IMG/VR virus record: IMGVR_UViG_2711768036_000007
Length of the DNA stretch: 39,927 bases
Strand: one strand, 5' to 3'
From: a virus
Taxonomy: Duplodnaviria > Heunggongvirae > Uroviricota > Caudoviricetes
Positions 1 to 38,994 of the stretch are shown here, piece after piece. The notes beneath the pieces were generated by a model, which was not told where the DNA came from, searched no databases, and saw nothing but the letters and a program-made list of their open reading frames with translations. Every line of letters starts with the position of its first letter. Positions within the stretch are counted from its first letter, which is position 1. The position numbers and the translations under genes are program-made.

Positions 1-1248
1 ATGGCACTGAATATTCCATTCAGAAATGCGTACTATCGTTTTGCATCCAGTTACTCATTTCTCTTTTTTATTTCCTGGTCGCTGTGGTGGTCGTTATACG
101 CTATTTGGCTGAAAGGACATCTAGGGTTGACAGGGACGGAATTAGGTACACTTTATTCGGTCAACCAGTTTACCAGCATTCTATTTATGATGTTCTACGG
201 CATCGTTCAGGATAAACTCGGTCTGAAGAAACCGCTCATCTGGTGTATGAGTTTCATCCTGGTCTTGACCGGACCGTTTATGATTTACGTTTATGAACCG
301 TTACTGCAAAGCAATTTTTCTGTAGGTCTAATTCCGGAGGCGCTATTTTTTGGCTTGGGGTATCTGGCGGGATGCGGTTTGCTTGATAGCTTCACCGAAA
401 AAATGGCGCGAAATTTTCATTTCGAATATGGAACAGCGCGCGCCTGGGGATCTTTTGGCTATGCTATTGGCGCGTTCTTTGCCGGCATATTTTTTAGTAT
501 CAGTCCCCATATCAACTTCTGGTTGGTCTCGCTATTTGGCGCTGTATTTATGATGATCAACATGCGTTTTAAAGATAAGGATCACCAGTGCGTAGCGGCA
601 GATGCGGGAGGGGTAAAAAAAGAGGATTTTATCGCAGTTTTCAAGGATCGAAACTTCTGGGTTTTCGTCATATTTATTGTGGGGACGTGGTCTTTCTATA
701 ACATTTTTGATCAACAACTTTTTCCTGTCTTTTATGCAGGTTTATTCGAATCACACGATGTAGGAACGCGCCTGTATGGTTATCTCAACTCATTCCAGGT
801 GGTACTCGAAGCGCTGTGCATGGCGATTATTCCTTTCTTTGTGAATCGGGTAGGGCCAAAAAATGCATTACTTATCGGAGTTGTGATTATGGCGTTGCGT
901 ATCCTTTCCTGCGCGCTGTTCGTTAACCCCTGGATTATTTCATTAGTGAAGTTGTTACATGCCATTGAGGTTCCACTTTGTGTCATATCCGTCTTCAAAT
1001 ACAGCGTGGCAAACTTTGATAAGCGCCTGTCGTCGACGATCTTTCTGATTGGTTTTCAAATTGCCAGTTCGCTTGGGATTGTGCTGCTTTCAACGCCGAC
1101 TGGGATACTCTTTGACCACGCAGGCTACCAGACAGTTTTCTTCGCAATTTCGGGTATTGTCTGCCTGATGTTGCTATTTGGCATTTTCTTCTTGAGTAAA
1201 AAACGCGAGCAAATAGTTATGGAAACGCCTGTACCTTCAGCAATATAG
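1..1248 (+). CDS. cscB: Sucrose:H+ symporter (LacY-family oligosaccharide permease), host gene
   Basis: 415-aa polytopic membrane protein; N-terminus MALNIPFRNAYYRFASSYSF and overall layout match my recollection of CscB/LacY family; no search run. Confidence 0.75.
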   Translation: MALNIPFRNAYYRFASSYSFLFFISWSLWWSLYAIWLKGHLGLTGTELGTLYSVNQFTSILFMMFYGIVQDKLGLKKPLIWCMSFILVLTGPFMIYVYEPLLQSNFSVGLIPEALFFGLGYLAGCGLLDSFTEKMARNFHFEYGTARAWGSFGYAIGAFFAGIFFSISPHINFWLVSLFGAVFMMINMRFKDKDHQCVAADAGGVKKEDFIAVFKDRNFWVFVIFIVGTWSFYNIFDQQLFPVFYAGLFESHDVGTRLYGYLNSFQVVLEALCMAIIPFFVNRVGPKNALLIGVVIMALRILSCALFVNPWIISLVKLLHAIEVPLCVISVFKYSVANFDKRLSSTIFLIGFQIASSLGIVLLSTPTGILFDHAGYQTVFFAISGIVCLMLLFGIFFLSKKREQIVMETPVPSAI

Positions 1249-1689
1249 ACGTAAACTTTTTCCGGTTGTTGTCGATAGCTCTATATCCCTCAACCGGAAA
1301 ATAATAATAGTAAAATGCTTAGCCCTGCTAATAATCGCCTAATCCAAACGCCTCATTCATGTTCTGGTACAGTCGCTCAAATGTACTTCAGATGCGCGGT
1401 TCGCTGATTTCCAGGACATTGTCGTCATTCAGTGACCTGTCCCGTGTATCACGGTCCTGCGAATTCATCAAGGAATGCATTGCGGAGTGAAGTATCGAGT
1501 CACGCCATATTTCGCTATCAGGATTCTGTGTGATGGTTACATCGCCCGGCTCAGGGCTGTTTAGTCATCAGCGCTTTCTGACAGTGCTGAGATTTCAACC
1601 TGTTGCAGTAAAAATGAGTAGATATAAGGCAAGTGTGCTGCCAAACCCATCTTTTACGGGGTGAAGGTAGATTTCGTTTGAAGGGTATC

Positions 1690-1704
1690 TGGTGTCCCCT
1701 GCAG
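1690..1704. repeat. Left attachment-site core (direct repeat, copy of argW 3-prime end)
   Basis: Exact 15-nt match to 38887..38901; its reverse complement CTGCAGGGGACACCA is the 3-prime end of tRNA-Arg argW as I recall it. Confidence 0.7.
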
Positions 1705-1763
1705 ACATCTACTTGACTCGGCAGGGGATTGATTAGAATGGTGTTTTTTAGATGTGAGAAATA

Positions 1764-1783
1764 TTTTACCCGCTATTTTACCC
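1764..1783 (+). promoter_or_regulatory. Putative integrase arm-type binding repeats (2 x TTTTACCC)
   Basis: TTTTACCC at 1764..1771 and 1776..1783; same octamer (both orientations) recurs next to the right att core at 38726..38770. Confidence 0.4.
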
Positions 1784-2023
1784 ATTGGCGCGGCTTAAGA
1801 GCTTATTTTTGAATTCACAATGATCACGATATAACCATCTTGCTCGCCCGTGGATAACTTTGGCTTTAGGCAGGTCTCCGGACTTAATCCGGTCATAGAT
1901 GAAGGTTTTACCGAAGCCAGTATCGGCCATGATGAATTTCAAATCAACCAGTGAATCAGGTTGTAGTTCGTGTTGCATGAGTGCTATCAGGTCTGGATAT
2001 CTTGATAAATGAAAATGCCTCAT
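1778..2023 (-). CDS. AlpA-family DNA-binding protein, probable excisionase/Xis
   Basis: Small ORF beside att site; motif TGFGKTFIYDRIKSGDLPKAKVIHGRARW resembles AlpA/Vis HTH; true start may be the internal Met (near 1978). Confidence 0.55.
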   Translation of the reverse strand: MRHFHLSRYPDLIALMQHELQPDSLVDLKFIMADTGFGKTFIYDRIKSGDLPKAKVIHGRARWLYRDHCEFKNKLLSRANG

Positions 2024-2038
2024 CGAGTGTGAGGCGGG

Positions 2039-2410
2039 TTAGTCCTTGCGTAGCTCGCTGATTCTTCTGTAAGTCTCTGGTGCTTTGTTCCCGTACGTCT
2101 TCATTTCAGACTTCAACAGAGCAACGAGTGAATCCCATTCGTTGAGGATTCCTTTGAATGCCGGAACGCGCTTTGCAACCTTGTCGAATGAATCTCTGAT
2201 TTCTGGAATCTGCTCAACAAGTGCAACGCATCGCCGAAAGTCTGCTGCGTCATGGGGAGCGCCGAAGTGATGACCATAGATATTCTTTTTCAGGCCACAT
2301 GCGATTGAGGCAAGAGTTGCGCTACTGATGCCGACATCGCCAGTTGATTGCCATTTCAAAACCTTCATAGCCAAATCTGACATTTCTTGTCTCCAATAAA
2401 AAACCGCCAT
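2039..2410 (-). CDS. Hypothetical early-left (ea region) protein, 123 aa
   Basis: ORF in track; start codon overlaps stop of upstream small ORF (TGATG coupling). Confidence 0.5.
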   Translation of the reverse strand: MAVFYWRQEMSDLAMKVLKWQSTGDVGISSATLASIACGLKKNIYGHHFGAPHDAADFRRCVALVEQIPEIRDSFDKVAKRVPAFKGILNEWDSLVALLKSEMKTYGNKAPETYRRISELRKD

Positions 2411-2577
2411 CAGGCGGCATGGTGTTCTTTCAGTTCTTCAATTCGAATATTGGTTACGTCTGCATGCGCTATCTGCGCCCATATCATCCAGTGGTCATAG
2501 CAGTCGTTGATGTTCTCTGCTTCGATAACTCTGTTGAATGGCTCTCCATTCCATTCACCTGTCACCCGGAAGTGCAT
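2410..2577 (-). CDS. Hypothetical small protein, 55 aa (MHFRVTGEWNGEPFNRVIEAEN...)
   Basis: Hand-translated; GGAG 8 nt upstream of ATG; stop overlaps start of 2039..2410; below the track 60-aa cutoff. Confidence 0.4.
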   Translation of the reverse strand: MHFRVTGEWNGEPFNRVIEAENINDCYDHWMIWAQIAHADVTNIRIEELKEHHAA

Positions 2578-2649
2578 TTATCATCTCCATAAAACAAAAC
2601 TCGCCGTAGCGAGTTCAGATAAAAGAAATCCCCGCGAATGCGAGGATTG

Positions 2650-2934
2650 TTATTCAGTGCCGATATTCACCTTTATCGCGAACACCTTTACCGGTTTATC
2701 GCCGAAGTGGGGATGTGTGATTGTCTTGATTTCATATCCGTCATACGGGACATCAATTCTGCGGCTGGAGTCGTCGCGCTTCGGATATCCCTTTGTGATA
2801 ATCAGGCGGTCATACTCGCGTAACATAATTCGCTTATTCCAGTAGTCATTACACAGGCGATACTCTTCCGTTTTCTCTCCGCGAATCATGGCATCGAAGT
2901 ATTCACCTTTAACGGCAAGTTGCAGGTTAGCCAT
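2650..2934 (-). CDS. ASCH/PUA-like (DUF3850-type) domain protein
   Basis: From internal Met: MANLQLAVKGEYFDAMIRGEKTEEYR resembles ASCH-like motif; GGAGG upstream; start overlaps upstream stop by 1 nt. Confidence 0.5.
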   Translation of the reverse strand: MANLQLAVKGEYFDAMIRGEKTEEYRLCNDYWNKRIMLREYDRLIITKGYPKRDDSSRRIDVPYDGYEIKTITHPHFGDKPVKVFAIKVNIGTE

Positions 2935-3194
2935 TACCGCACCTCCAGTTTCCATACCGCCTGACCAATCCGGCTGGCATAGGTATCTTTGGATACTGCT
3001 CCGTCTTTAGCCAGCTCCATAAGAATTTTGCGCAAATCTGCCGAACGCCATTCTTCATCAGGAAATTCCTTCTCCATTGCCAACCGCAGATTCCAGGTTG
3101 CTATCGTGAATGGATATTCCCCGCCGAGAGCTTTCTCTTGCAGGGCAGAACGGGAACGCATCACCTGCAAAACCTTCTCTTTTACATCCATCAT
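2934..3194 (-). CDS. Hypothetical ea-region protein, 86 aa
   Basis: ORF in track; ATGA-type overlap with upstream gene. Confidence 0.45.
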   Translation of the reverse strand: MMDVKEKVLQVMRSRSALQEKALGGEYPFTIATWNLRLAMEKEFPDEEWRSADLRKILMELAKDGAVSKDTYASRIGQAVWKLEVR

Positions 3195-3829
3195 TTTGCC
3201 TCCTGCGGCGGTTCTGGTAGTGGCATCCAGTGTGTGACATTGCTAATCAGACCATATTCATTAGTTTGAGGATGGTTGCCGTTATCGTCTCCATATTTAA
3301 GACTCTCCATAAAACCATAATGCTTATTCCCATTAACGCGCACAAAGCCGTAATAAGCTGGTATAACGCCGATCTCACACGTAATCAGCAAAGGAAAACT
3401 AGTTCTCCAATTTAGCTCGCCGATTACAGGCATTCTCTCACTACAGCTTATCCAACCATCCGGAGTTACCGGATTGTTGCCAGATAGCTCGTTCAACCTG
3501 TAAGTTTGGCTTACAGGTTCGGCTTCCAGTTCTGCTATGCGCTTCTCTGCGGCTTCCAGCTCAACACGCAGCTTCCCTACCGTTAGCGCAATTTCCTCGT
3601 TCTCCTGATCGCGGCGTTTTATGTATTGCTGGTCATCCAGTAGTGCCAGCACGGTTTCTGGTCCGGCCAGAAATTTGAAGGCGTTGAGCGCATCAATATC
3701 CACACCGTAATCTTTAAGTTCCTGTTCACTTAACAAATCATCATCAACTGGCAACATTAACAGGCGTTCCATTGCTTGAGTTGCACGTTCTGCCGCCATT
3801 CGCAGTGCCTGATAGTCAATCTTGCTCAC
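3191..3829 (-). CDS. Ead/Ea22-like protein with C-terminal DUF551-like domain
   Basis: 212 aa; coiled-coil N-part; C-terminal motif THWMPLPEPP typical of DUF551 prophage proteins (recollection). Confidence 0.5.
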   Translation of the reverse strand: MSKIDYQALRMAAERATQAMERLLMLPVDDDLLSEQELKDYGVDIDALNAFKFLAGPETVLALLDDQQYIKRRDQENEEIALTVGKLRVELEAAEKRIAELEAEPVSQTYRLNELSGNNPVTPDGWISCSERMPVIGELNWRTSFPLLITCEIGVIPAYYGFVRVNGNKHYGFMESLKYGDDNGNHPQTNEYGLISNVTHWMPLPEPPQEAK

Positions 3830-4133
3830 TGGTTGCCTCCTTTGCTGGGCTTTCTATCTTCTGAGTGGTTGTATCAAACTCAAACAACTTAACCACGTCA
3901 TCAAACAGGACATAATCGCCATCAGAATCTTCAGTCATGTCAGCGCCACAATCCTGACCGCACGAGTCACAACCACCCATATCAAGTTCGTATCGCTTCA
4001 GGTTTGCGATATTTGATAAATTCAGCGCCAGTACAGCCAGGTCATAAACCTCGTCAGCGGTATACCCTGCACCATGCCCATACATTTCAATGCGGGATAT
4101 GATTTCTTCTACACGTTGTTTTGTGATTGTCAT
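3816..4133 (-). CDS. Hypothetical ea-region protein, 105 aa, acidic Cys-rich
   Basis: ORF in track; start ATG overlaps stop of upstream small ORF. Confidence 0.45.
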
Positions 4134-4294
4134 TTTTTCCCACTCCGTAACATCGCATTCAGATATTTGTTTTGATTCACTGATGGAAAAGAATTTCTCT
4201 TAAGCAATTCCTCTCTCGATGGCATTGGCTTTACGCGTTGGCGAATAATCATTTCTGCCGGAAGAATGCCGGGATTGTATGCAAGTCCTCTCAT
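4130..4294 (-). CDS. Hypothetical small protein, 54 aa ([23 protein letters not shown]...)
   Basis: Hand-translated; AGAGGA RBS upstream; ATGA overlap with downstream gene. Confidence 0.4.
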
Positions 4295-4310
4295 GGTAAA
4301 TTCCTCTTTG

Positions 4311-4625
4311 TTAATTTATTCGTATGCCTGCTCTTTCTTCATCGAGTTTTTTTAGCTTGTATCGCATAGCTCTTACTGAATAAATTGAGCGGCAGGTTGC
4401 AATTGCTATTTCTTCTGCGGAGAACTTACCGAAAAGTGATACTTCGGCTCTTGTCCAGCGTCTTCCACGAAGTCGGCTAACAATGTCAGCGCCAATCCTT
4501 GTTGCTTTCGCCATTACTGCTTTTTCAGTCCTTTCCAGTTTTTCAGCGATAACTTCAACTGGCATTGTCGCCGCTACTTCGCGCAAGAAATCGACTTCCC
4601 ATTTCTCCCATGGAGTCTTTTTCAT
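4311..4625 (-). CDS. Hypothetical protein, 104 aa, internally repeated, possibly DNA-binding
   Basis: ORF in track; two similar W..E..L...IA segments. Confidence 0.45.
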
Positions 4626-4636
4626 AGTCGATACCG

Positions 4637-5125
4637 TTATTTGATAAGAAGTGAAGGTTTCCCAACTTTGAGTTGAGCGCCGGGGATATTTATTCCTGCT
4701 TTTAGTTGGTGTTTGATTGCCAGTTTGTCGGCTTTAATTGTCGTTTCAAACTCAACGTATTCAGGAGGAAGGGCGCTTGAGTCGATGATTTCTACAGTTT
4801 CTGACGGTTTGCGGATTGTTACCTGGTGAATACCTGCTCGAATCTTTTTCTTGCCAACCATTTCAAGCGATGACGCTATATACGCAATAATGCTGTCAAT
4901 CTTATTTTGAATTACTGCGGCTCGCTCATTTAGTGACTTTGCCTCTTCCTTGAGGCGTTCAGCATAACCAGATTCATTTTTAATAATGGCAAGAAGTTGC
5001 TCTATTTTATCGGTAAATTCTCCTTCCATGCCTTCTATTGTGTCAGCAATCATCTCTGGTTCTAAATCTGAATCCATCAATTTTGCGTATTCATTGGCAA
5101 TTTCATACAGTTTGCTCACTGGCAA
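4637..5125 (-). CDS. Coiled-coil protein next to recombinase (possibly Gp157-like accessory)
   Basis: 162 aa, directly downstream of RecT-like gene; family assignment is recollection only. Confidence 0.45.
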   Translation of the reverse strand: MPVSKLYEIANEYAKLMDSDLEPEMIADTIEGMEGEFTDKIEQLLAIIKNESGYAERLKEEAKSLNERAAVIQNKIDSIIAYIASSLEMVGKKKIRAGIHQVTIRKPSETVEIIDSSALPPEYVEFETTIKADKLAIKHQLKAGINIPGAQLKVGKPSLLIK

Positions 5126-6005
5126 CCTCCAGCTTCGCTTTGCATTCTATGTAAATGGCTTGTACGTTCTGCTGCAATTTCATTCCAGATGTCAGGCGAT
5201 ATGCTTCTGCAAAATATCGCTTCAAATCATCCATGTTTTCTGCCTGAGCCATTTCATCGCAAAGAAGTTGTGCTTTATCCATTATTTCCTGCTGGCGTTT
5301 CCGTTCATCTTCGCGGATATCTTCCTCTGATTTGTGCGGCATAACTGGTTCCTGATGCATACCTTCATCTTCGTTAAGAAGGTGAATGGCATTATCCAGT
5401 CGCTGGGCTTTAGGCCAGTATTTGCTGGCGCGTTTAACTATTGTTTTACGCGCCATCTCTTCCCAGAATGTTTTCCACGGTCCATTCTTTGCCTTGCTCG
5501 TTGCTTCCACAGCTTTAATTTCTGCCAGACTCATTTCTTCAGTCAGGTAGTCACCATCTGCTGTTTTAACCGTGCAATAACCTCCAACAATAGAGCCTCG
5601 CTCACCAAATGCGTTGTATTTGTGGGTTGGTGCTGAATCAAGGCCATTTGATTCATAGGTGTCGTTTGAGTACACCAGTTTGCATTGCCCCCACTTAATT
5701 GATCCTGTCGATTGCGCAAGATGAAGTAATCCCATGTAACTGATATCAAGGCACACCATGCCGTCGCGAGGAACCAGATAAGCCAGTTTGCTGGCCGGGT
5801 TTAAGGTGATGCCGATCGCCGCAACATTGATGATGGCGTTCTGTGCGCTGGTTGGATTTGCCAGTGCTGTTTTAGCCAGGTAATCGTTTTTCTGGAAATA
5901 CTGAATTGCAAACTGGCTTTCCTTAGCCCATGTCACCGTCTGTTCAGTCAATGCTCCGCAGAATAATTGCTCTTGCTGTTTAACGAATTCAACGATATTG
6001 CTCAT
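5103..6005 (-). CDS. RecT-family single-strand annealing recombinase
   Basis: Motif KNGPWKTFWEEMARKTIVKRASKYWP matches RecT conserved NGPW..HWEEMAKKTA region. Confidence 0.8.
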   Translation of the reverse strand: MSNIVEFVKQQEQLFCGALTEQTVTWAKESQFAIQYFQKNDYLAKTALANPTSAQNAIINVAAIGITLNPASKLAYLVPRDGMVCLDISYMGLLHLAQSTGSIKWGQCKLVYSNDTYESNGLDSAPTHKYNAFGERGSIVGGYCTVKTADGDYLTEEMSLAEIKAVEATSKAKNGPWKTFWEEMARKTIVKRASKYWPKAQRLDNAIHLLNEDEGMHQEPVMPHKSEEDIREDERKRQQEIMDKAQLLCDEMAQAENMDDLKRYFAEAYRLTSGMKLQQNVQAIYIECKAKLEVASEQTV

Positions 6006-6313
6006 GCAGCTTCTCCATAAATATGTCTGCGTTTGAATATTGCGAAGGCATATTCAGCCTTAACTCTTTCGGTTATTGCATCCCAGAACCATTCAGCTGC
6101 TTTTTCCTGATAGTTACAGTCATCATCTTCCAGCCAGTCGATAGCGTCCTTAGTGTGTTCATCTGGTTTATATGAGCGAAGCATTTCGCTTATTGGGTCG
6201 CAACGTTTGCAGAGACGATCAACTTCACTGTTGATTCGTTCGTAATCTTCATCGGTAAAACTTGCGATGATTTGCGATATTTCACGCTTATCATTCAGAG
6301 TCAGAATCATCAT
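6002..6313 (-). CDS. Hypothetical protein upstream of recT, 103 aa
   Basis: ORF in track; position of kil/gam-type accessory genes. Confidence 0.45.
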   Translation of the reverse strand: MMILTLNDKREISQIIASFTDEDYERINSEVDRLCKRCDPISEMLRSYKPDEHTKDAIDWLEDDDCNYQEKAAEWFWDAITERVKAEYAFAIFKRRHIYGEAA

Positions 6314-6394
6314 CTTTCTCCTGTTCTTTGTGCTGATTGAGCATTTCTTTCATCTGACGAATGAATTCTTCGTCTGACCAGTTATCTGTAAAAC

Positions 6395-6565
6395 TCATGG
6401 ACGGCCTTGTTGTTTCAAAATATCCCAAAGCTTTTCGAGCAAACTTTTCATTCTTGGTTGTTTAAAGTCTGCTCCGGTTAAAATATTTTTTCGTGAATGC
6501 TGTACCGATAAAATCGGGTTGAAAGGGCGAACCGATGCCGCCCCTGCAATAGCGAACTGTTGCAT
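6395..6565 (-). CDS. cIII: cIII-like protein (FtsH inhibitor), 56 aa
   Basis: From internal Met: MQQFAIAGAASV...SLLEKLWDILKQQGRP resembles lambda CIII (MQYAIAG...SLLERITRKLRDGWKRLIDILNQPGVP); AGGAG RBS upstream. Confidence 0.6.
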   Translation of the reverse strand: MQQFAIAGAASVRPFNPILSVQHSRKNILTGADFKQPRMKSLLEKLWDILKQQGRP

Positions 6566-6631
6566 AGGATGCTCCTTCTGTTTGATTGCATAACGAAAAC
6601 GCCTCTCGTGAAGCGTTATTGGTATGCATAT

Positions 6632-6655
6632 AAAAAGGCCCTCACATTGGAGGGC
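6632..6655 (-). terminator. Rho-independent terminator in the leftward operon (tL-like)
   Basis: Minus-strand hairpin GCCCTC-6nt-GAGGGC followed by U-run. Confidence 0.45.
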
Positions 6656-6791
6656 AAAGAAGATTTCCAATAATCAGAACAAGTCGGCTCCTGTTTAGTT
6701 ACGAGCGACATTGCTCCGTGTATTCACTCGTTGGAATGAATACACAGTGCAGTGTTTATTCTGTTGTTTATGCCAAAAATAAAGGCCACCG

Positions 6792-7043
6792 TCAGGCAGC
6801 CTTGTTGTAAATGTTACAGGTATCAAGTAAGTAATTAGATGGAGCGCCATAAATTATGAATTCATCGTTTGTCGGGTCCATCTCCATCTCTTGGCCTATT
6901 GCCATTCTTGCGTCAGTGTCATCAGCGGCGAAGCATAAAACAGCCCACGCACCCATTGTTTTAAAAAGAACTGCAATTGGCTGTGGTTTTACTGAATTTG
7001 CGTTAGCGCGAAAATCATAAATCGCACTTTCATGAAATTCCAT
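6792..7043 (-). CDS. Hypothetical protein between N and cIII, 83 aa
   Basis: ORF in track. Confidence 0.45.
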   Translation of the reverse strand: MEFHESAIYDFRANANSVKPQPIAVLFKTMGAWAVLCFAADDTDARMAIGQEMEMDPTNDEFIIYGAPSNYLLDTCNIYNKAA

Positions 7044-7051
7044 ATCTCACC

Positions 7052-7357
7052 TCAATCGTAATAAGCTGGAATTGATTTTCCGCGTTGCTTCTGGCGGCCT
7101 GAGCATGTCACACCCATTTCACTGCGTGGCTTGCGGTAGTAAATACGATTCTGTTTACGATCGACTTCTTCTGCCTTCTTGCAGCGAAGGCTTCCGAGTG
7201 ATGCTGCTTTATCTGCCCTGACGCAACCAGAGAGCTTTAGCGCAATTTTTCGCGCCAGTCGCTGCTCTTGCATTGCCTGTTCACGTTGAGCCTGTCTGCG
7301 TGCTCTGCGGCGATTTCTGGCGTTATCGTCAGCCAGATATGTAATGACTACTGTCAT
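7052..7357 (-). CDS. N-like transcription antitermination protein
   Basis: From internal Met (GGAGG RBS): arginine-rich motif DNARNRRRARRQAQREQA near N-terminus; first large gene downstream of nutL. Confidence 0.65.
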   Translation of the reverse strand: MTVVITYLADDNARNRRRARRQAQREQAMQEQRLARKIALKLSGCVRADKAASLGSLRCKKAEEVDRKQNRIYYRKPRSEMGVTCSGRQKQRGKSIPAYYD

Positions 7358-7689
7358 GTTGACCTCCGGGAAGGTACACATCCTTGTGTGTCGATGATTA
7401 TTTGTTTTTGCGTTCCCACATCCAGTCATCTACTTCAGACCAGATGGTGAAACCGAAGCCGATGGCGAATGTGGTAACTAAACCACCGAGAATTGGGTTG
7501 GTAATGATGTCTAACATTTTCTGTTCCTCAGATGATTAGCTTTGGTGGTGTGGTCGGTGGGAGACCCATTTCGACCCGCTTCGTCCGACTTCAATTCGGC
7601 AATAGTCCCGCAGGCCTCGCCGCTTTACGTGCGACATATTCCCGTCCATGAACCCTTCACCACACCCCAAAGCCAACTACTCTTTGGTT

Positions 7690-7729
7690 CCCGCATTTCG
7701 GCGGGACAATCCCATCAATGTTAAAGAGC
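7690..7729 (-). promoter_or_regulatory. nutL (boxA GCTCTTTAA plus boxB hairpin CCCGCCGAAATGCGGG)
   Basis: Same boxA/boxB pair, same 15-nt spacing, as the rightward copy at 9359..9401. Confidence 0.6.
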
Positions 7730-7777
7730 CTGCCAATCTGTTCCGTTTGGCTTCCAGCGTCCTGCTGATGGCTAAAG

Positions 7778-7863
7778 AATACTGTAGGTATTTTATTGTG
7801 TAAATACCCAAGGTATTTATTTTTGATGAAATAATGATAAACAAATGAATACAAAGGATATTT
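7778..7863. promoter_or_regulatory. OL operator cluster / PL region (AATAC-N5-GTATT sites)
   Basis: Palindromic 15-mers at 7778..7792 and 7803..7817, degenerate third at about 7849..7863; same motif in OR. Confidence 0.55.
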
Positions 7864-7948
7864 ATTTTTTCGCTGTCTGCTTGTTCAGTGATTTTTATGC
7901 GGGATATGTGAAGTGGATCCCGATAGCTATTGCTGCCGGGATTATGGG

Positions 7949-8317
7949 TTAGTCAGCGAAGGTTAAGACGAGAATTACCTTAATGATGTCTGCTACAACA
8001 GACACGGCCATAGATAAACCAAAGACGATCCAAGCCACAGTGATGTCTTCACTACCATCGTATAGAGTTCCGTAATCACTGGTGTAAGGCGTAAATGTCG
8101 CGCCTTGATACAATAGGTATAAGCTTGATTCATAGAGGATAAATGCAGATATCCCTTGTATTGCTATGATCACAAGAATCATGAAACGAGCTGATCTATG
8201 CGCCCAAGCCTGGCTTATTTTTTCTGATAGAGATTTCGCAATAAAAGCATGCGCTAAGCCGTAAATTGTCGAGATTGCCAACATCCCAAAAAAGCTTGCT
8301 ATAGCGGTTCCAACCAT
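7949..8317 (-). CDS. Small polytopic membrane protein co-transcribed downstream of cI (rex/sieB position)
   Basis: 122 aa from ATG with AAGGGG RBS (track ORF starts at TTG overlapping cI stop); about 4 hydrophobic helices; rare codons visible. Confidence 0.6.
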   Translation of the reverse strand: MVGTAIASFFGMLAISTIYGLAHAFIAKSLSEKISQAWAHRSARFMILVIIAIQGISAFILYESSLYLLYQGATFTPYTSDYGTLYDGSEDITVAWIVFGLSMAVSVVADIIKVILVLTFAD

Positions 8318-8334
8318 AATCGCCCCTTGCGTGA

Positions 8335-9051
8335 TCAAACCAGCCTTAGTTTTGTCTCAATTGCAACGCCTATAATCTTGCAGTTTCCATTGATTGGCAC
8401 GAGAGGCCATGCAGGATTAAGTCCCTTGAGGTATTTATTTCCGCCGTCGATTATCAGCTTCTTGAATGTTGCTTCGTTAGAGTCAGAAAGTTTTGCTATG
8501 ACCAAGCTGCCGTTGATCGCCTCCCTTCCGGTATCGAAAAGAACGAATGTTCCCTCTGGAATGCTTAACCCAACCGGTGCCGTCATTGAATCACCTTCCA
8601 CTTTAAGCCAGAACGCATTACCTTGAATATGCGCGTCAGACTCAAGCCAAACATCTATGTCTTTAATGGTGTATGGTTCGCATGCTTCACACCACGAGCC
8701 AGCCTGGATACTGCTTAACACCGGATACCTCTTTCCTGCTCTGTATTCCCCTGCATACCTTACGTTGGCATCGCTCTTAAGGCTTTCTGCCTGTTCTGCA
8801 ACCTTGGCAGCAATTGACTGGCTAAAATCAGCAATTGAGACTTGCAACAGTCGTGCAAAACCAGATGCAACCTCAACGTTTAGCGCGTTTCTGCCATTAA
8901 GATAATGCCCTACCGCTCCTTGGGTGATACCCAGTTCATCAGCGATTGAGTATTGGGTTATCCCCAATTCTTTCTTTTTTGACTCATACAAAGCCTTAAG
9001 CCGCTTAGCGTCTTCGAGCTGTTCTGTCGTCAGTGATTTTTTATTTTCCAT
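8335..9051 (-). CDS. cI: cI-type prophage repressor (N-terminal HTH, C-terminal S24 LexA-like domain)
   Basis: 238 aa; HTH segment ITQYSIADELGITQGAVGHYLNG; C-terminal GDSM and K motifs of S24 peptidases; divergent from cro across operators. Confidence 0.85.
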   Translation of the reverse strand: MENKKSLTTEQLEDAKRLKALYESKKKELGITQYSIADELGITQGAVGHYLNGRNALNVEVASGFARLLQVSIADFSQSIAAKVAEQAESLKSDANVRYAGEYRAGKRYPVLSSIQAGSWCEACEPYTIKDIDVWLESDAHIQGNAFWLKVEGDSMTAPVGLSIPEGTFVLFDTGREAINGSLVIAKLSDSNEATFKKLIIDGGNKYLKGLNPAWPLVPINGNCKIIGVAIETKLRLV

Positions 9052-9086
9052 AGCTTAATTCTAATAGCTAAGGTACTTAAACTAAA

Positions 9087-9126
9087 AATACCCTGAGTAT
9101 TGATTGCTTTGAATACCTGTAGTATT
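9087..9126. promoter_or_regulatory. OR operator sites / PR-PRM region
   Basis: AATACCCTGAGTATT (9087..9101) and AATACCTGTAGTATT (9112..9126) between divergent cI and cro. Confidence 0.6.
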
Positions 9127-9157
9127 CTTTGTTCATGGTTAATAACGGAGAGTGCAT

Positions 9158-9352
9158 ATGATTCGAATGACACTTGCCGATTACGCCAAAATCCATGGAC
9201 AGGCTAAAGCAGCCAGTGACTTTGGTGTAATCCAGTGCGCTATCAGCAAGGCCATTCTGGCAGGCCGTAACATTATGGTTACGGTAAAGCCTGATGGCAG
9301 TGTGATTGGAGAGGAGGTTCGTCCTTTCCCAAGCAACAAGAAAAACAAATAG
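9158..9352 (+). CDS. cro: Cro repressor
   Basis: [33 protein letters not shown]... resembles lambda Cro; GGAG RBS. Confidence 0.8.
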
Positions 9353-9358
9353 TAACAC

Positions 9359-9401
9359 CGCTCTTTAACAGTCATGGTCCTCATTCCCGCCGAAATGCGG
9401 G
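9359..9401 (+). promoter_or_regulatory. nutR (boxA CGCTCTTTAACA plus boxB CCCGCCGAAATGCGGG)
   Basis: Between cro and cII; boxB identical to nutL copy. Confidence 0.65.
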
Positions 9402-9460
9402 AATACAACGCGCATAAGTTGATGCGCATAACTTCTTATTTGTTAAGGAAATACTTACAT

Positions 9461-9754
9461 ATGGTTCGTGCAAACAAACGCAACGAGGCTCTAAGAATCG
9501 AGAGTGCGTTGCTTAACAAAATCGCAATGCTTGGAACTGAGAAGACAGCGGAAGCTGTGGGAGTTGATAAGTCGCAGATCAGCAGGTGGAAGAGGGACTG
9601 GATTCCAAAGTTCTCAATGCTGCTTGCTGTTCTTGAATGGGGCGTCGTTGACGACGATATGGCTCGATTGGCACGACAAGTTGCTTCGATTCTCACCAAT
9701 AAAAAACGCCCGGCGGCAACCGAGCGTTCTGAACAAATCCAGATGAAATTCTGA
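9461..9754 (+). CDS. cII: CII transcriptional activator
   Basis: [51 protein letters not shown]... matches lambda CII as I recall it; track ORF carries a spurious N-terminal extension. Confidence 0.9.
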
Positions 9755-34163: not shown

Positions 34164-34649
34164 TTATCTAATGTTGCTGCTACTGTTGCATGTGACGGTG
34201 TTTCCAAATCCTGAATTGCAGTTTGTATATGTGTCAACGCGCGTTGGGTAAGGTTGAGTTATAACAGGCTGGCGCGCTTTTTGCTCGATCGCTTGCATTG
34301 TGTTTACAGCCTGATAATTCAACAAAGCCTGCTGGAATGCTTGGCTTTGTGCTATTTGTTGGGCTTGTTCTTGGCTTTGTAATTGAACATAAAGATTCTG
34401 AAGCTCAAGTCTTGCCTGTGCGTCACTTATCTTGCCTTCATCGACACCTTGCCCGAGCATCTTTGCAGCAAGGACATACAGCTTAGGTGTTGGTGCTGAT
34501 GCCATGCGTGAGTCGTTCTTCACACTGGCATCAAGGCAATTAGCCATATCGCTAAGCTTTTGATAGCGTTGTTCGCAACTTGCTTGATAGTCACTTACTT
34601 TTGCGCATCCAACCAGCAGAAGCGGGATAATTAACAGTGATTTTTTCAT
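34164..34649 (-). CDS. Lipoprotein, Gln-rich, at the sieA position downstream of mnt
   Basis: From internal Met with AAGGAG RBS: signal MKKSLLIIPLLLVGC (lipobox LVGC); 161 aa; converges on end of ejection gene. Confidence 0.65.
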   Translation of the reverse strand: MKKSLLIIPLLLVGCAKVSDYQASCEQRYQKLSDMANCLDASVKNDSRMASAPTPKLYVLAAKMLGQGVDEGKISDAQARLELQNLYVQLQSQEQAQQIAQSQAFQQALLNYQAVNTMQAIEQKARQPVITQPYPTRVDTYTNCNSGFGNTVTCNSSSNIR

Positions 34650-34719
34650 ATGGTTAACTCTCCTTAGTTTTTCACAGGATATCATGAAGGCAATGCCATT
34701 TTAGCCGGAAACTAGATTT

Positions 34720-35121: not shown

Positions 35122-37359
35122 ATGACAGACATTACAGCCAATGTGATCGTATCAATGCCTTCGCAACTCTTCACTATGGCGCGTTCTTTTAAAGCCGTAG
35201 CCAATGGCAAAATTTATATCGGTAAAATTGACACTGACCCGGTAAATCCTGAAAACCAGATTCAGGTTTATGTAGAGAATGAAGACGGTTCTCACGTTCC
35301 TGTTTCTCAACCAATCATCATTAACGCTGCTGGTTACCCTGTATATAACGGACAGATTGCCAAATTCGTTACCGTGCAAGGCCATTCTATGGCTGTTTAT
35401 GATGCGTATGGTGCACAGCAGTTCTATTTTTCGAATGTGCTGAAGTATGACCCTGACCAACTCAGGCAAGATCTTGCATCTCAAGGAGGTGTTAATCTGG
35501 TAAACGGAGCTATCTCACAGGAAGATCTTGTTTTGCAGTCGATCACAAAAATTCCAAGTTATGATAATTCTAACGTAGTCCAGGCGTGGCGCGATAGTGT
35601 TGCGACCTACGGGTATGTTTACTTCTCTAATCATTCAAAAAATCAGATGGTGTACACCGTACCGTCTACAGCTGCTAACGCTTCTTTCCTTGCGAACAGT
35701 AAAGTAATCATTGATAAAAATGTCACCCTGAGATTCGACAGTGATCTGTACTCACTGTTTAAATCGTTGCAGTACGAGGGGGAGGGTACGTTTGAATTTA
35801 CGCACCTGAACTTTAAAGCAACCGGTGGAGAAGTGGATTATCTGGCTAAGCAGGCCATCCTCAACCGAAACCCTATTCGCATGAAGCGAGTGGAATGGTC
35901 AGATTGTAAAGTTTATTCCATAAATGGTGACACGTTCTTCTATGAAGGTGAAGTCACCATATCCTCAGATAGCGCAGCTATCTTCCCCTTAACTACTGAC
36001 CGTACAACAGGCCTGTTCGCACCAATAGATATTGGAGAGCATATTTCTGCACATATTCGTATGGAATCTCAGGCCGCCTCAGAAGTTGGGATTGTTCTGC
36101 GATGCTCTGGTGGTTGGATGATGTTCTATGGGGCACCAGGTGCTACACAGTGGTCTTATAGACAGAAACCAATTGGTGGTCCAGTAGCAGAAGGAACTCC
36201 ATTCCCGCTGCCAGGAGGTTTACTGTCGTACGCCCCGGGCAAAGCAACCGTTGGCGTATCACTGCAAGGTAAAAACTGGGCGCAGATAACGATGAATGGC
36301 GTTGGGATACGCTTGCCCTTTGATACTGCTGATGTAGGGGATGTATACGAAGTTGGGTTTGTTGCACTGACCCCGGCATCTGGAGGTTCTGCGCGTGTAA
36401 CTGGATTATGCAGCTACACCTCTGATAATGGTGTGCACGGTAAGCCTCCACTTAATATCCTTATCCACGGTGATAGTACAGCTGAGGATTTCATTTCCGC
36501 GTTCAGCTCGTACATTCCGCAATTAATGGATGGAGCGAACGGCCACCGTTCACATAGCATTGTAAACAAGGCAGTTGCCGGACAGACAATGAGGCAACAG
36601 TTAGATCTCCTGAAGGCTCAGGGGCCGGGTGATGCTTACATCGTTATTATGGTTGCCGGAACTAACGAAGGGCAGGCAAACCAAAACGGCGATTATATGG
36701 CGGCACTGATAGATGAGTTTGTCTTATATTGCAATGGCCTTGGTCGTATCCCTGTTTGGGTTGAGCCGTGGATGTGGTATAGCCAGTCATTTATTGGCGG
36801 TGCTGGTCAACCATCAGCAAATTACGATGGTGTTGCGGAGTTACGCGAGGCTGGTAAACGCCAGATGATGAAATATGGCAATAACGTCATTTGTGTAACA
36901 ACAACTCACCAGCTCCCGGCCCCATATCCAGAGTATTTCAACACGCAATACGACCCACTTCTGCGTGATGACATTCACCAAAGCCAGTTAGGGTATCGTC
37001 TGTATGCGGAAATTATCTGCTCTGCCATTATCGACTGGTGGTCGCGTGTTGATTACACGCCAAGAGCAGCTGTTCAATGGTGGGCTGGAACAAACGTAAC
37101 AGTACAGGAACCGTCAAGTTTAACTGCCAATTCAATTAATATTAAACTGGCAGCCACTTCATTTGCGAATGGCAATACTGTTCTAACGCTTCCGAGGTGG
37201 TGCAGACCAAAAGTAACCAAAAATGTCCCTGTACCGTTCACTGCTGATGGCGTTTCATTTGGCATGGCAATGGCCACCATTAATGCTTCAACAGGACAAA
37301 TATCGATTGAAGGGTCCACCACTACATCTCCAACGTTCTACATAGATGCGACATGGTAG
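35122..37359 (+). CDS. Tailspike: P22-type N-terminal head-binding domain fused to a domain with SGNH-esterase signature
   Basis: N-terminus [43 protein letters not shown] resembles P22 gp9; downstream blocks IHGDS, VAGQT, GTNE, DDIHQS fit SGNH blocks I, II, III, V. Confidence 0.8.
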
Positions 37360-37567: not shown

Positions 37568-38761
37568 TCACTCCACCTTCCCATCAAGCCATTCCGCCCA
37601 CCACTGCATCATTTCTCTGCGCTTATCTAGATACTGAGCATGGTTGTAAATCCCGCGCACAGATCCGCCGTTGGCATGTGCAAGTTGCACTTCAATAGCG
37701 TCAGCAGGCCATTCGTGCTCGTTCATAATCGTGCTGAATTCATGCCTGAATCCGTGACCGCTTTCCAGACCCTCATAGCCGATTTGTTTAATCACAAGTA
37801 GCACCGCGTTCTCGCAGATTGGCTTCTTCTTATCGTTGCGTCCGGCAAAAACAAACTCTGATACTGGTTTGGTGATTGAGCTTAGCGTAGTGAGAAGTTC
37901 AACCACCTGGTCTGACATAGGAACCACATGAATTTTGCGTCCCTTCATCACACTGGCGTCGATAGTGATAATCCTGTTTTCAAAATCGACGTTCTTCCAT
38001 TGCATGGAACGAAGCTCTTTCGTTCTTAGGGCTGTGTAGCGTAAAACTTTGGTCGCAATGAGCGATACGATGCTTCCTGAAAATGTTGCCAGTGCTTTGT
38101 TGAATGCCGGGATCTGGTCTGCAGGAAGAAACGGGAAGTTCTTCTTGCGGTATCCCTTCATGGCGTCAGCAAGGTCAGGTGCCGGGTTATATTTAGCCCT
38201 TCCGGTGACAATAGCGTAACGGAAAACCTCGCCGCATCTTCTGCGTGCTTTGTTGGCTCGCTCCATTGCACCGCGATCTTCAAATCTGCGGATTACTTCC
38301 AGCAGTTGCATCGGCTCAATATCCTGAATCTCAAGACCGCCGATGATGGGTAAAATGTCGTCATCAAACATTTTTGCAAGTTCAGTCGCATACCCTACTG
38401 ACCAGACTTGCTTCTTGTGTTCGTACCATTCCTTGTAAATTGCACTAAAGGAATTGTTGTTAGACGAAGCCTTTTTCGCTTTTACCGGATCGATGCCAAC
38501 CGAGATGTCTTTCCTCGCAGTCCATGCTTTATCCCTTGCCTCCTGCAAAGTCATAAGCGGATATTTTCCTACGGTCAGGATTTTCTCCTTACCGTCAATC
38601 TTGTAGCGAAGCTGCCATACCTTTTTCCCTGACACAGGGACATAAAGGTACAGGCCATTACCATCGAGTAGGCGGTATGGTTTTTCTTTCGGCTTTGCTG
38701 CTTCAATCTGCTTAACGGTGAGCATGGGTAAAAATCCGGTGGGTAAAATTATTTTATCCAC
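37568..38761 (-). CDS. int: Tyrosine integrase (P4-type)
   Basis: 397 aa; C-terminal catalytic region with HGFRHEF and Y motif; next to att core and tRNA remnant. Confidence 0.9.
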   Translation of the reverse strand: MDKIILPTGFLPMLTVKQIEAAKPKEKPYRLLDGNGLYLYVPVSGKKVWQLRYKIDGKEKILTVGKYPLMTLQEARDKAWTARKDISVGIDPVKAKKASSNNNSFSAIYKEWYEHKKQVWSVGYATELAKMFDDDILPIIGGLEIQDIEPMQLLEVIRRFEDRGAMERANKARRRCGEVFRYAIVTGRAKYNPAPDLADAMKGYRKKNFPFLPADQIPAFNKALATFSGSIVSLIATKVLRYTALRTKELRSMQWKNVDFENRIITIDASVMKGRKIHVVPMSDQVVELLTTLSSITKPVSEFVFAGRNDKKKPICENAVLLVIKQIGYEGLESGHGFRHEFSTIMNEHEWPADAIEVQLAHANGGSVRGIYNHAQYLDKRREMMQWWAEWLDGKVE

Positions 38762-38770: not shown

Positions 38771-38886
38771 GTCATGGAGTGCGGCTGTCAACGATCTGAC
38801 GCGAACCATTACGAACTGTGAATCTACGGAAGGCTTGATATTCAGGGGATTTTGCGGACTGGTACGGATGGGAGCGAACTGATAAA

Positions 38887-38901
38887 TGGTGTCCCCTGCA
38901 G
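38887..38901. repeat. Right attachment-site core (direct repeat)
   Basis: Exact 15-nt match to 1690..1704. Confidence 0.7.
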
Positions 38902-38919
38902 CCATTTAACTAAGAGGAC
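38887..38919 (-). tRNA. argW: argW tRNA-Arg(CCU) remnant: 5-prime 18 nt fused directly to 3-prime 15 nt (central ~42 nt absent)
   Basis: Minus strand reads GTCCTCTTAGTTAAATGG + CTGCAGGGGACACCA; both ends match argW as I recall it, but 33 nt cannot form a tRNA. Confidence 0.4.
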
Positions 38920-38994
38920 AATGCGGCATGAGTATACCCGCTAATGGACTGCGGGGTAAGTACGCTGCCGCTCGATTGCTTAAACCCTCGCCAT

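Follow-up and report, generated by a model that had tools for sequence, protein, structure and literature searches.

An early-left accessory block of exchangeable small genes, probably of the ea/exo-xis type, in a P22-like prophage at argW

In phage lambda, the exo-xis region (orf60a, orf63, orf61, orf73, ea22, ea8.5, orf55) lies between the recombination genes and xis in the distal part of the pL operon. This region is reported to be non-essential and among the earliest transcribed, and to modulate the lysis-lysogeny decision and host physiology (PMC10834534, PMC6213356). Phage P22 carries its ea region (eaC, eaG, eaA, eaI, eaD, eaF, orf45, eaE, orf56) in the same position. Tetrameric assembly and a pro-lysogenic phenotype are known for the lambda and Shiga toxin (Stx) phage variants of Ea22 (PMC10834534). 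Lambda Orf55 has been proposed, in a speculative model, to be an RNA polymerase modulator like T7 Gp2, and has also been likened to phi29 p56 (PMC8614690). Here we describe the corresponding region in the virus record IMGVR_UViG_2711768036_000007 (Caudoviricetes), a stretch of 39,927 nucleotides (nt) which is called the window below. It contains a continuous run of eight minus-strand genes, orfA to orfH, between genes for the recombination proteins Gp157 and RecT (4637-6005) and an excisionase gene (1778-1978).

We consider this run to be an ea/exo-xis-type early-left accessory block of a P22-like prophage at argW, composed of exchangeable, non-essential cassettes, and assign to this reading a probability of roughly 0.8. 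Like the regions of this class, it lies between a recombination module and xis on the pL strand and consists of mosaic small genes. The mosaicism became apparent when eight comparator genomes were aligned to the window. Breakpoints of similarity recur at 1988/9, 2393/4, ~2654, 2933, 3191-5, 3482/3, 3801-3845 and 4130, which are gene or domain junctions; the breakpoint at 3482/3483 lies inside orfD, between its two halves. Since the breakpoints recur at gene junctions, each cassette is common whereas the combination is rare. Some piece of the region is held by 4861 of 5426 E. coli genomes, but coverage of 80% or more is reached in only three of the 5426. Phage records reach at most 47%, and the exact eight-gene combination is present in none of them. 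Among 80 viral loci with orfE, the next gene is orfF in 48 and the preceding one is orfD in 28; the other neighbors vary. The genes are independent cassettes which are reshuffled among phages by recombination at gene junctions. The recurrent breakpoints and the varying neighbors contradict a single obligate system of proteins that always occur together.

Three short segments at the junctions (3801-3845, 3429-3482 and 2900-2933; 34-54 nt) are 89-100% conserved in phages with unrelated flanking genes. They are candidate boundary sequences for cassette exchange, and the "boundary sequence" model of lambdoid mosaicism (Clark et al. 2001), in the form in which it is related in PMC3233612, fits them.

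A sequence-only reading of this stretch had described seven tightly coupled ORFs (open reading frames) between xis and the recombination genes. The position holds, but eight genes are counted on the minus strand. Coming from Gp157, orfA (4625-4311, 104 amino acids (aa)) begins after 11 nt and is followed after another 16 nt by orfB (4294-4130, 54 aa). Next come orfC (4133-3816, 105 aa), which overlaps orfB by 4 nt, and orfD (3829-3191, 212 aa), whose GTG start lies behind AAGGAGG and within a 14-nt overlap with orfC (3829-3816) that was missing from the earlier list of junctions. orfE (3194-2934, 86 aa) overlaps orfD by 4 nt, and orfF (2934-2650, 94 aa) overlaps orfE by 1 nt. Gaps of 72 and 26 nt precede orfG (2577-2410, 55 aa) and orfH (2383-2039, 114 aa), and orfH is separated from the excisionase gene by 60 nt. 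The ATGA overlaps reported earlier were found at 4133-4130 (orfB/orfC) and 3194-3191 (orfD/orfE), and the junction at 2934 is real as well, with a TAATG overlap at 2936-2932 (orfE/orfF). At 2410, in contrast, the letters TGATG are present, but the ATG belongs to the stem of a terminator-like hairpin (2418-2403) and lacks a Shine-Dalgarno sequence. Tight coupling therefore applies to the six genes orfA to orfF (4625 to 2650) and not to orfG and orfH, whose upstream gaps contain hairpins and which are each bracketed by terminator-like hairpins.

Some starts in the program-made ORF list had to be corrected. The start of orfH at 2383 is an ATG with GGAGA 7 nt upstream; the opening MSDLAMK at this point is common to 13 of 14 aligned homologues, and the onset of the PHROG profile (residue 10 of the long ORF) and the RefSeq length of 345 nt fit it too. 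Starts are also over-extended for the 101-aa ORF of the ASCH-like gene (orfF) and for the 81-aa xis ORF.

Two of the ORFs have fewer than 60 aa, as had been noticed before, and orfA has no clear Shine-Dalgarno sequence. One could thus ask whether the small ORFs are chance reading frames in a non-coding spacer. The chance of this is negligible. All eight genes match PHROG families of unknown function (E 4.6e-23 to 1.2e-67; Pfam and PHROG E-values together range from 1e-23 to 1e-68), including the two shortest, which belong to DUF2737 (orfB, 54 aa, E 3.4e-32) and phrog_676 (orfG, 55 aa, E 5.9e-39). In comparisons with homologues, the ratio of non-synonymous to synonymous differences (pN/pS) is ~0.04-0.31 for orfA, orfB, orfC, orfF, orfG and orfH (0.07-0.19 for orfB, 0.04-0.31 for orfG), meaning that most changes are synonymous; orfG differs from its lambda counterpart by six synonymous changes and one non-synonymous change. 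Plus-strand shadow ORFs have no family support, with one exception. Judged by these substitution patterns and family matches, the genes of the cluster are real and under purifying selection. The exception is an ORF at 2638-2823 (plus strand), antisense to the ASCH-like gene, which matches phrog_20945 (E 2.2e-35); this is probably a family of mis-annotated antisense ORFs.

The earlier statement that none of the genes has an obvious known function is correct insofar as none has an established function. However, four of the eight fall into named families (Ea22/DUF551, DUF2737, lambda Orf55 and ASCH-like). The clearest of these is orfD, the gene described before as a DUF551-like Ead protein. Its residues 2-100 match Ead_Ea22 (PF13935, E 3.9e-23, 83 bits against a cut-off of 27) and contain a coiled coil, and its residues 125-209 match DUF551 (PF04448, E 8e-12, 46.3 bits against a cut-off of 22). 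The N-terminus is 47% identical to the N-terminus of lambda Ea22 and the C-terminus 36% identical to that of P22 EaA; within the coiled-coil segment, identity to P22 EaD reaches 72% over 46 aa. A combination of Ead_Ea22 with DUF551 is the architecture of the "V2" variant of Ea22 from Stx phages (PMC10834534). By analogy, orfD is probably a coiled-coil oligomer of the Ea22 type, with DUF551 domains on display and a bias on the lysis-lysogeny decision as its effect.

orfG is 98% identical to lambda Orf55 (lambdap35, NP_597778) over 55 aa. By its sequence and its position near xis it is the orthologue of Orf55, with orfH inserted between. It is predicted to be a small alpha/beta protein and, following the proposal in the literature, may modulate RNA polymerase.

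The assignment of orfF as an ASCH/PUA-like protein is weakly supported. With the Pfam ASCH family (PF04266) it reaches 14.2-14.5 bits (14.2 for the gene itself), whereas the gathering score is 21.2. The gene belongs to phrog_625 (E 8e-51), its RefSeq homologues are named "ASCH domain-containing", and its ratio of non-synonymous to synonymous substitution rates (dN/dS) is 0.11. Forty relatives of orfF were taken from 736 representative-level matches. None of the 40 matched ASCH at E<=0.001, while weak matches were seen to ASCH in 16 and to DUF3850 in six. Residues G19, K21, E24 and R26 show little or no variation across the 40 relatives and fit GxKxxExR, the N-terminal signature of the ASCH superfamily. 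Because of the weak ASCH and DUF3850 matches and these near-invariant residues we call orfF ASCH-like. With hhalign, the orfF family and a sequence of E. coli YqfB could be aligned only over the 16-residue motif (probability 0.4), and a search of the 40-sequence profile against the PDB gave no match. Possibly, orfF is a PUA-like protein that binds nucleic acid or modified bases.

The next question is whether the two genes closest to Gp157 belong to the accessory block at all. orfA encodes a basic protein (isoelectric point (pI) 10) with two copies of a repeat of ~40 residues, W-x3-E...IA..T.RS, and matches phrog_11492 (E 4.6e-23) and phrog_323, "D5-like regulator" (E 2.8e-20). Homologues of ~150 aa hold a third repeat, and some carry PF08281 (sigma70_r4_2). 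The AlphaFold2 model shows two three-helix bundles (predicted local distance difference test score (pLDDT) 80.8). A comparison of predicted folds, which had been suggested together with the first reading, was run on orfA and orfH. For orfA, the neighbors among viral models (BFVD) were small uncharacterized phage helix-turn-helix (HTH) proteins, GcrA-like proteins and D5-like regulators; for orfH they were three unnamed models only. According to its model orfA is a tandem HTH protein, and it probably binds DNA through its repeats while traveling with the recombination module. orfB is a DUF2737 protein (PF10930, 110.5 bits against a cut-off of 25, 53 of 53 positions). It is basic (pI 11), 77% identical to P22 orf56, and also homologous to HK97 gp38.

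The block from 4130 to at least 6191 (orfB, orfA, Gp157, RecT) is one unbroken segment with 92-99% DNA identity in phages Gally and Kapi1 and in E. coli PM4-5, whereas the genes downstream differ. HK140 aligns with the orfA-Gp157-RecT block from 4291; at the protein level, identity of orfA and Gp157 in Gally, HK140 and PM4-5 is 98-100%. As orfB, orfA, Gp157 and RecT travel as one segment, orfA and orfB could be functional members of the recombination module. They would then be auxiliary parts of it, in a role analogous to that of P22 Abc1 and Arf. In P22, too, the DUF2737 gene comes after abc2, an identical orfA homologue is named "Abc1-like" in the Gally record, and an HTH is also present in P22 Abc1 (bioRxiv 10.1101/2023.04.06.535777). 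Yet DUF2737 genes also occur with other recombinase types and at loci lacking orfA, and the linkage may merely reflect a recently shared recombination segment. Moreover, orfA gave no BLASTP alignment to P22 Abc1 at E<=100, and Abc1 was not among its top 50 BFVD matches. With neither sequence similarity nor a structural match in the top 50, the "Abc1-like" label in the Gally record is unsupported. Membership of orfA and orfB in the recombination module is therefore a tentative proposal, and we regard it as doubtful. A reading of both genes as part of the accessory block is preferred here.

The remaining genes bear on another possibility raised at the outset, namely that the region is an anti-defense or host-takeover island in which one or more cassettes inhibit host immunity or macromolecular synthesis in the first minutes of infection. 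The position in an early operon, the small size of the genes and their combinatorial variability would all fit. orfC is strongly acidic (pI 4.1, net charge -15), has no known domain and matches phrog_3126 (E 1.2e-67). Its family is narrow (285 clusters); the named database matches are E. coli, Salmonella and their phages, and the matches among phage records are mainly Salmonella and Escherichia phages, including the Skatevirus LPST10. In this Salmonella phage, which has its own primase/helicase, an "eae protein" and then an orfC homologue (82% identical) are encoded at 2043-2848 within a run of small genes. Thus ea-type cassettes are common to temperate lambdoid phages and unrelated siphoviruses. 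A zinc-binding CxxCxxxC site was considered for orfC and rejected; the cysteines are not conserved, and C58 and H20 vary.

orfE has no known domain and matches phrog_2814 (E 1.7e-50). One pair of sequences, with one synonymous and seven non-synonymous changes, had suggested positive selection, but this was overturned by a dN/dS of 0.32 over 42 alleles.

For orfH an all-alpha fold with seven helices is predicted (pLDDT 93.8, predicted template modeling score 0.87), with no solved structural relative. Relatives were found in 277 phage records, among them phage 434, Stx phages, ~150 Vibrio phages, a Klebsiella siphovirus and Arthrobacter phages. A link to dATP/dGTP pyrophosphohydrolase (PF04447) was discarded, the proteins with both signals being in-frame recombinant chimeras and not homologues. 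Chimeric ORFs of this kind are many in public databases (examples are P0186, P0223, P0234, P0188, P0204 and P0205), with parts of orfH fused in frame to segments of DUF550/PF04447, Erf, Kil or Ead. Such fusions bear witness to recombination among early-left cassettes and can create false "domain" links in homology searches.

The wide spread of orfH matters for the anti-defense question. Its relatives lie in early runs of small genes in unrelated Vibrio and Klebsiella phages, which argues for functions that do not depend on lysogeny. The acidic orfC is shared with LPST10, where it stands beside the "eae protein", and lambda Orf55 has been modeled like the host-enzyme inhibitors T7 Gp2 and phi29 p56 (PMC8614690). 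Abc2 and Ral are encoded in neighboring regions of the same operon in P22, and accessory genes beside them can trigger abortive-infection systems of the host (bioRxiv 10.1101/2023.04.06.535777). Against this, none of the eight ORFs matched a named defense or anti-defense family in PHROGs, PADLOC or NCBIfam; in PADLOC the excisionase alone matched (mad1, E 1.1e-13). Sequence searches of the PDB with orfA, orfC, orfD, orfE, orfF and orfH gave nothing meaningful. Selection is purifying and not diversifying (dN/dS 0.04-0.32), and the cysteine motif of orfC has been lost as an argument. The only relatives with an experimental basis point to modulation of the lysis-lysogeny decision (Ea22, PMC10834534).

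On balance an anti-defense island is an unlikely description of the region. For single cassettes a role in anti-defense or host takeover is possible and is neither supported nor refuted by these results. That at least one of them is an undescribed inhibitor of a host defense or host enzyme is a guess we would make only with considerable reserve. The best candidates would be orfH, with its confidently predicted all-alpha fold and its occurrence in lambdoid, Vibrio, Klebsiella and Arthrobacter phages; the strongly acidic orfC, common to LPST10 and similar E. coli and Salmonella phages of ~45-48 kb; and orfG.

How would the accessory block be expressed? Within the cluster only one sigma-70-like site was found, on the opposite strand (3889-3916), and such sites are not enriched over shuffled sequences. 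Terminator-like sites, in contrast, are enriched in 1200-9500 (15 versus 7.6 ± 2.9 expected). Four hairpins on the coding (minus) strand have energies of -9.1 to -13.1 kcal/mol and z-scores of -2.5 to -5.4. Two of them stand in tandem between orfF and orfG and have T-runs (2648-2627 and 2616-2597; -13.1 and -11.9 kcal/mol, z -5.4 and -4.8). The third, at 2418-2403, extends over the stop codon of orfG and also has a T-run (-11.4 kcal/mol); its counterpart in HK140 is annotated as a rho-independent terminator. The fourth lies between orfH and the excisionase gene (2035-2017; -9.1 kcal/mol, z -3.85).

Far upstream on the same strand, a promoter scan gave a pL-like promoter, TTTACA-17-TATTCT (7804-7776), among operator-like palindromes of the form ATACC..GGTAT. 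Reading of the sequence downstream yielded a putative nutL with an rrn-type boxA, GCTCTTTAACA (7729-7719), and a boxB-like hairpin (7706-7689). The product of an N-like ORF (7052-7429, minus strand) has an arginine-rich motif and matches Pfam N_peptide with E 0.0016, which is below threshold. A 39-aa hydrophobic ORF (7517-7398) also lies downstream of nutL.

The likely interpretation is that the region forms the promoter-distal end of the early-left (pL) operon and that its genes stay silent during lysogeny. Once the phage infects or is induced, transcription would start from pL, and N-type antitermination by nutL and the N-like protein would carry RNA polymerase past several intrinsic terminators to the terminal excisionase gene. 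orfA to orfF would be translated as one coupled block. Since orfG and orfH sit between terminator hairpins, these two genes and the excisionase gene should be the most dependent on antitermination. The Kapi1 homologues of orfG (Kapi1_002) and orfB (Kapi1_009) show no detectable expression in RNA-seq of lysogens (PMC12922286).

The hairpins on both sides of orfG and orfH could also be taken to mean that these are lysogenic-conversion morons, i. e. autonomous, terminator-bracketed cassettes which the prophage expresses to the advantage of its host. The insertion of orfH, a cassette that lambda, HK140, HF4s and Kapi1 do not have, would agree with this. However, no promoter-like site is present upstream of either gene, the gaps of 72 and 26 nt being filled with hairpins. 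Both genes are oriented as the pL operon is, and Kapi1_002 is silent in lysogens. Morons are thus a very improbable explanation, and it seems far more plausible that orfG and orfH are distal cassettes of the accessory block.

Several points weigh against the accessory-block reading, or at least against its functional side. orfB, orfC, orfE and orfH have no assignable activity, and the ASCH assignment of orfF stays under threshold. The pro-lysogenic phenotype of Ea22 was shown in the lambda and Stx variants, and the C-terminal domain of the lambda protein is unrelated to the DUF551 domain of orfD. The RNA polymerase model for Orf55 is explicitly presented as speculation in the paper that proposes it (PMC8614690). 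The promoter, the nut site and the terminators are consensus-level predictions, the N-like ORF falls short of the Pfam threshold, and the presumed dispensability of the cassettes is carried over from lambda and P22.

The window begins in a host gene for an oligosaccharide transporter of the major facilitator superfamily (MFS) (1-1248, named after its RefSeq homologue) and ends in yfdC, and between the two lies a prophage of ~37 kb. The attachment (att) core CTGCAGGGGACACCA, 15 nt long, occurs exactly twice in the window (1690-1704 and 38887-38901), where no copy would be expected by chance. This direct repeat is equal to the 3' end of argW and delimits the prophage, which is inserted at argW. 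The phage is P22-like, as had been stated: its structural genes resemble those of P22, a P22 head-binding domain is present in the tailspike (E 1.3e-66), and the best phage matches of the region include the Lederbergvirus phages Gally, HF4s and Kapi1.

Downstream, the cluster is bounded by the final gene ahead of attR, which encodes a TorI-type excisionase of 66 aa (minus strand) that is 100% identical to RefSeq WP_001163428 "TorI" (phrog_66, E 1.1e-08). The integrase gene (37568-38761) lies at the opposite end of the prophage, so that no int adjoins xis. The KplE1 (IntS/TorI) module has this arrangement. At the upstream boundary, the minus-strand genes for Gp157, of the Mu Gam-like end-protection family (PF05565, E 2.1e-36), and RecT were also identified by RefSeq annotation; a match to phrog_253 at this boundary has E 1.6e-52.

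A few features outside the cluster deserve mention. The argW gene for tRNA-Arg beside the integrase gene (38885-38935, minus strand) is internally deleted, its first 18 nt, GTCCTCTTAGTTAAATGG, being joined directly to the last 15 nt (the att core). ARAGORN found no tRNA at this remnant, and neither Rfam nor tRNA scans gave a match anywhere in the window. The argW region measures 701 nt in the window and 743 nt in otherwise 100% identical E. coli genomes, with 42 nt missing at the annotated tRNA-Arg; the source strain may truly have lost them, or the gap may be an artefact. The tailspike (35122-37359, plus strand) also gives a weak match to GDSL-like lipases/esterases (E 7e-4, below threshold), which hints at an esterase-type, receptor-modifying tailspike. 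Just upstream of it, in the slot of P22 sieA/immI, lies a gene for a protein of 173 aa (34164-34685, minus strand; phrog_6067, function unknown). Between the gene for the cI-like repressor and pL, where lambda has rexAB and P22 has sieB, a hydrophobic protein of 129 aa is encoded (7949-8338, minus strand; phrog_6534, E 2.1e-78, function unknown). Because of this slot it is a candidate superinfection-exclusion or defense gene.

The region is of an already known kind, and every gene is found in RefSeq and PHROGs at 92-100% identity. As a discovery it carries little weight. Its practical value lies in the corrected gene map, with eight genes, the start of orfH at 2383 and four terminator-like hairpins, and in the removal of the unsupported "Abc1-like" label. 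In addition orfH, orfC and orfG, which are compact, widely distributed and foldable, would be reasonable entries for an anti-defense or host-takeover screen.

Compared with the known systems, the block shares with lambda the slot between recombination genes and xis, an Ea22-type gene and orf55 itself; orfG and its flanking hairpins lie within a 260-nt match of 95.8% identity. In contrast, no homologues of orf60a, orf61, orf63 and ea8.5 were found (orf73 was outside the comparison), and the C-terminal domain of orfD is the DUF551 of the Stx-phage "V2" type and not that of lambda Ea22. Furthermore, RecT/Gp157 stand in place of Exo/Bet/Gam, and xis is of the TorI type with the integrase gene at the other prophage end.

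With P22 the block has the phage type and the position in common, as well as orfB (orf56) and the two parts of orfD, which correspond to the coiled coil of EaD and the C-terminal DUF551 of EaA. By tblastn, orfA, orfC, orfE, orfF and orfH have no counterpart in P22, and orfG has only a partial match of 25 aa near eaG; abc1 and abc2 are missing here. A Rfam scan, the only search made for it, gave no counterpart of the P22 antisense aI RNA. orfA does resemble P22 Abc1 in being a small HTH protein in the equivalent slot beside recombinase and end-protection genes, but detectable sequence similarity and a structural match among the top BFVD results are both lacking.

Also among the closest relatives are the early-left regions of E. 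coli Lederbergvirus phages and of prophages at argW. In E. coli PM4-5, 92% of 1200-5200 has a counterpart (96.7% identity) and the order torI-orfH-orfG-ASCH-orfE is kept, but the DUF551/Ead pair is split and there is one additional gene. The prophages of PM4-5 and 503440 have the same cscB-like flank, and phage Kapi1 has the same att sequence and a TorI-type xis. Near-identical cassettes are present in Kapi1, Gally, HF4s and 503440, but there the middle cassettes have been replaced. Lambdoid and P22-like phages carry early-left accessory blocks that are mosaic and non-essential, and the region is a textbook case of one.

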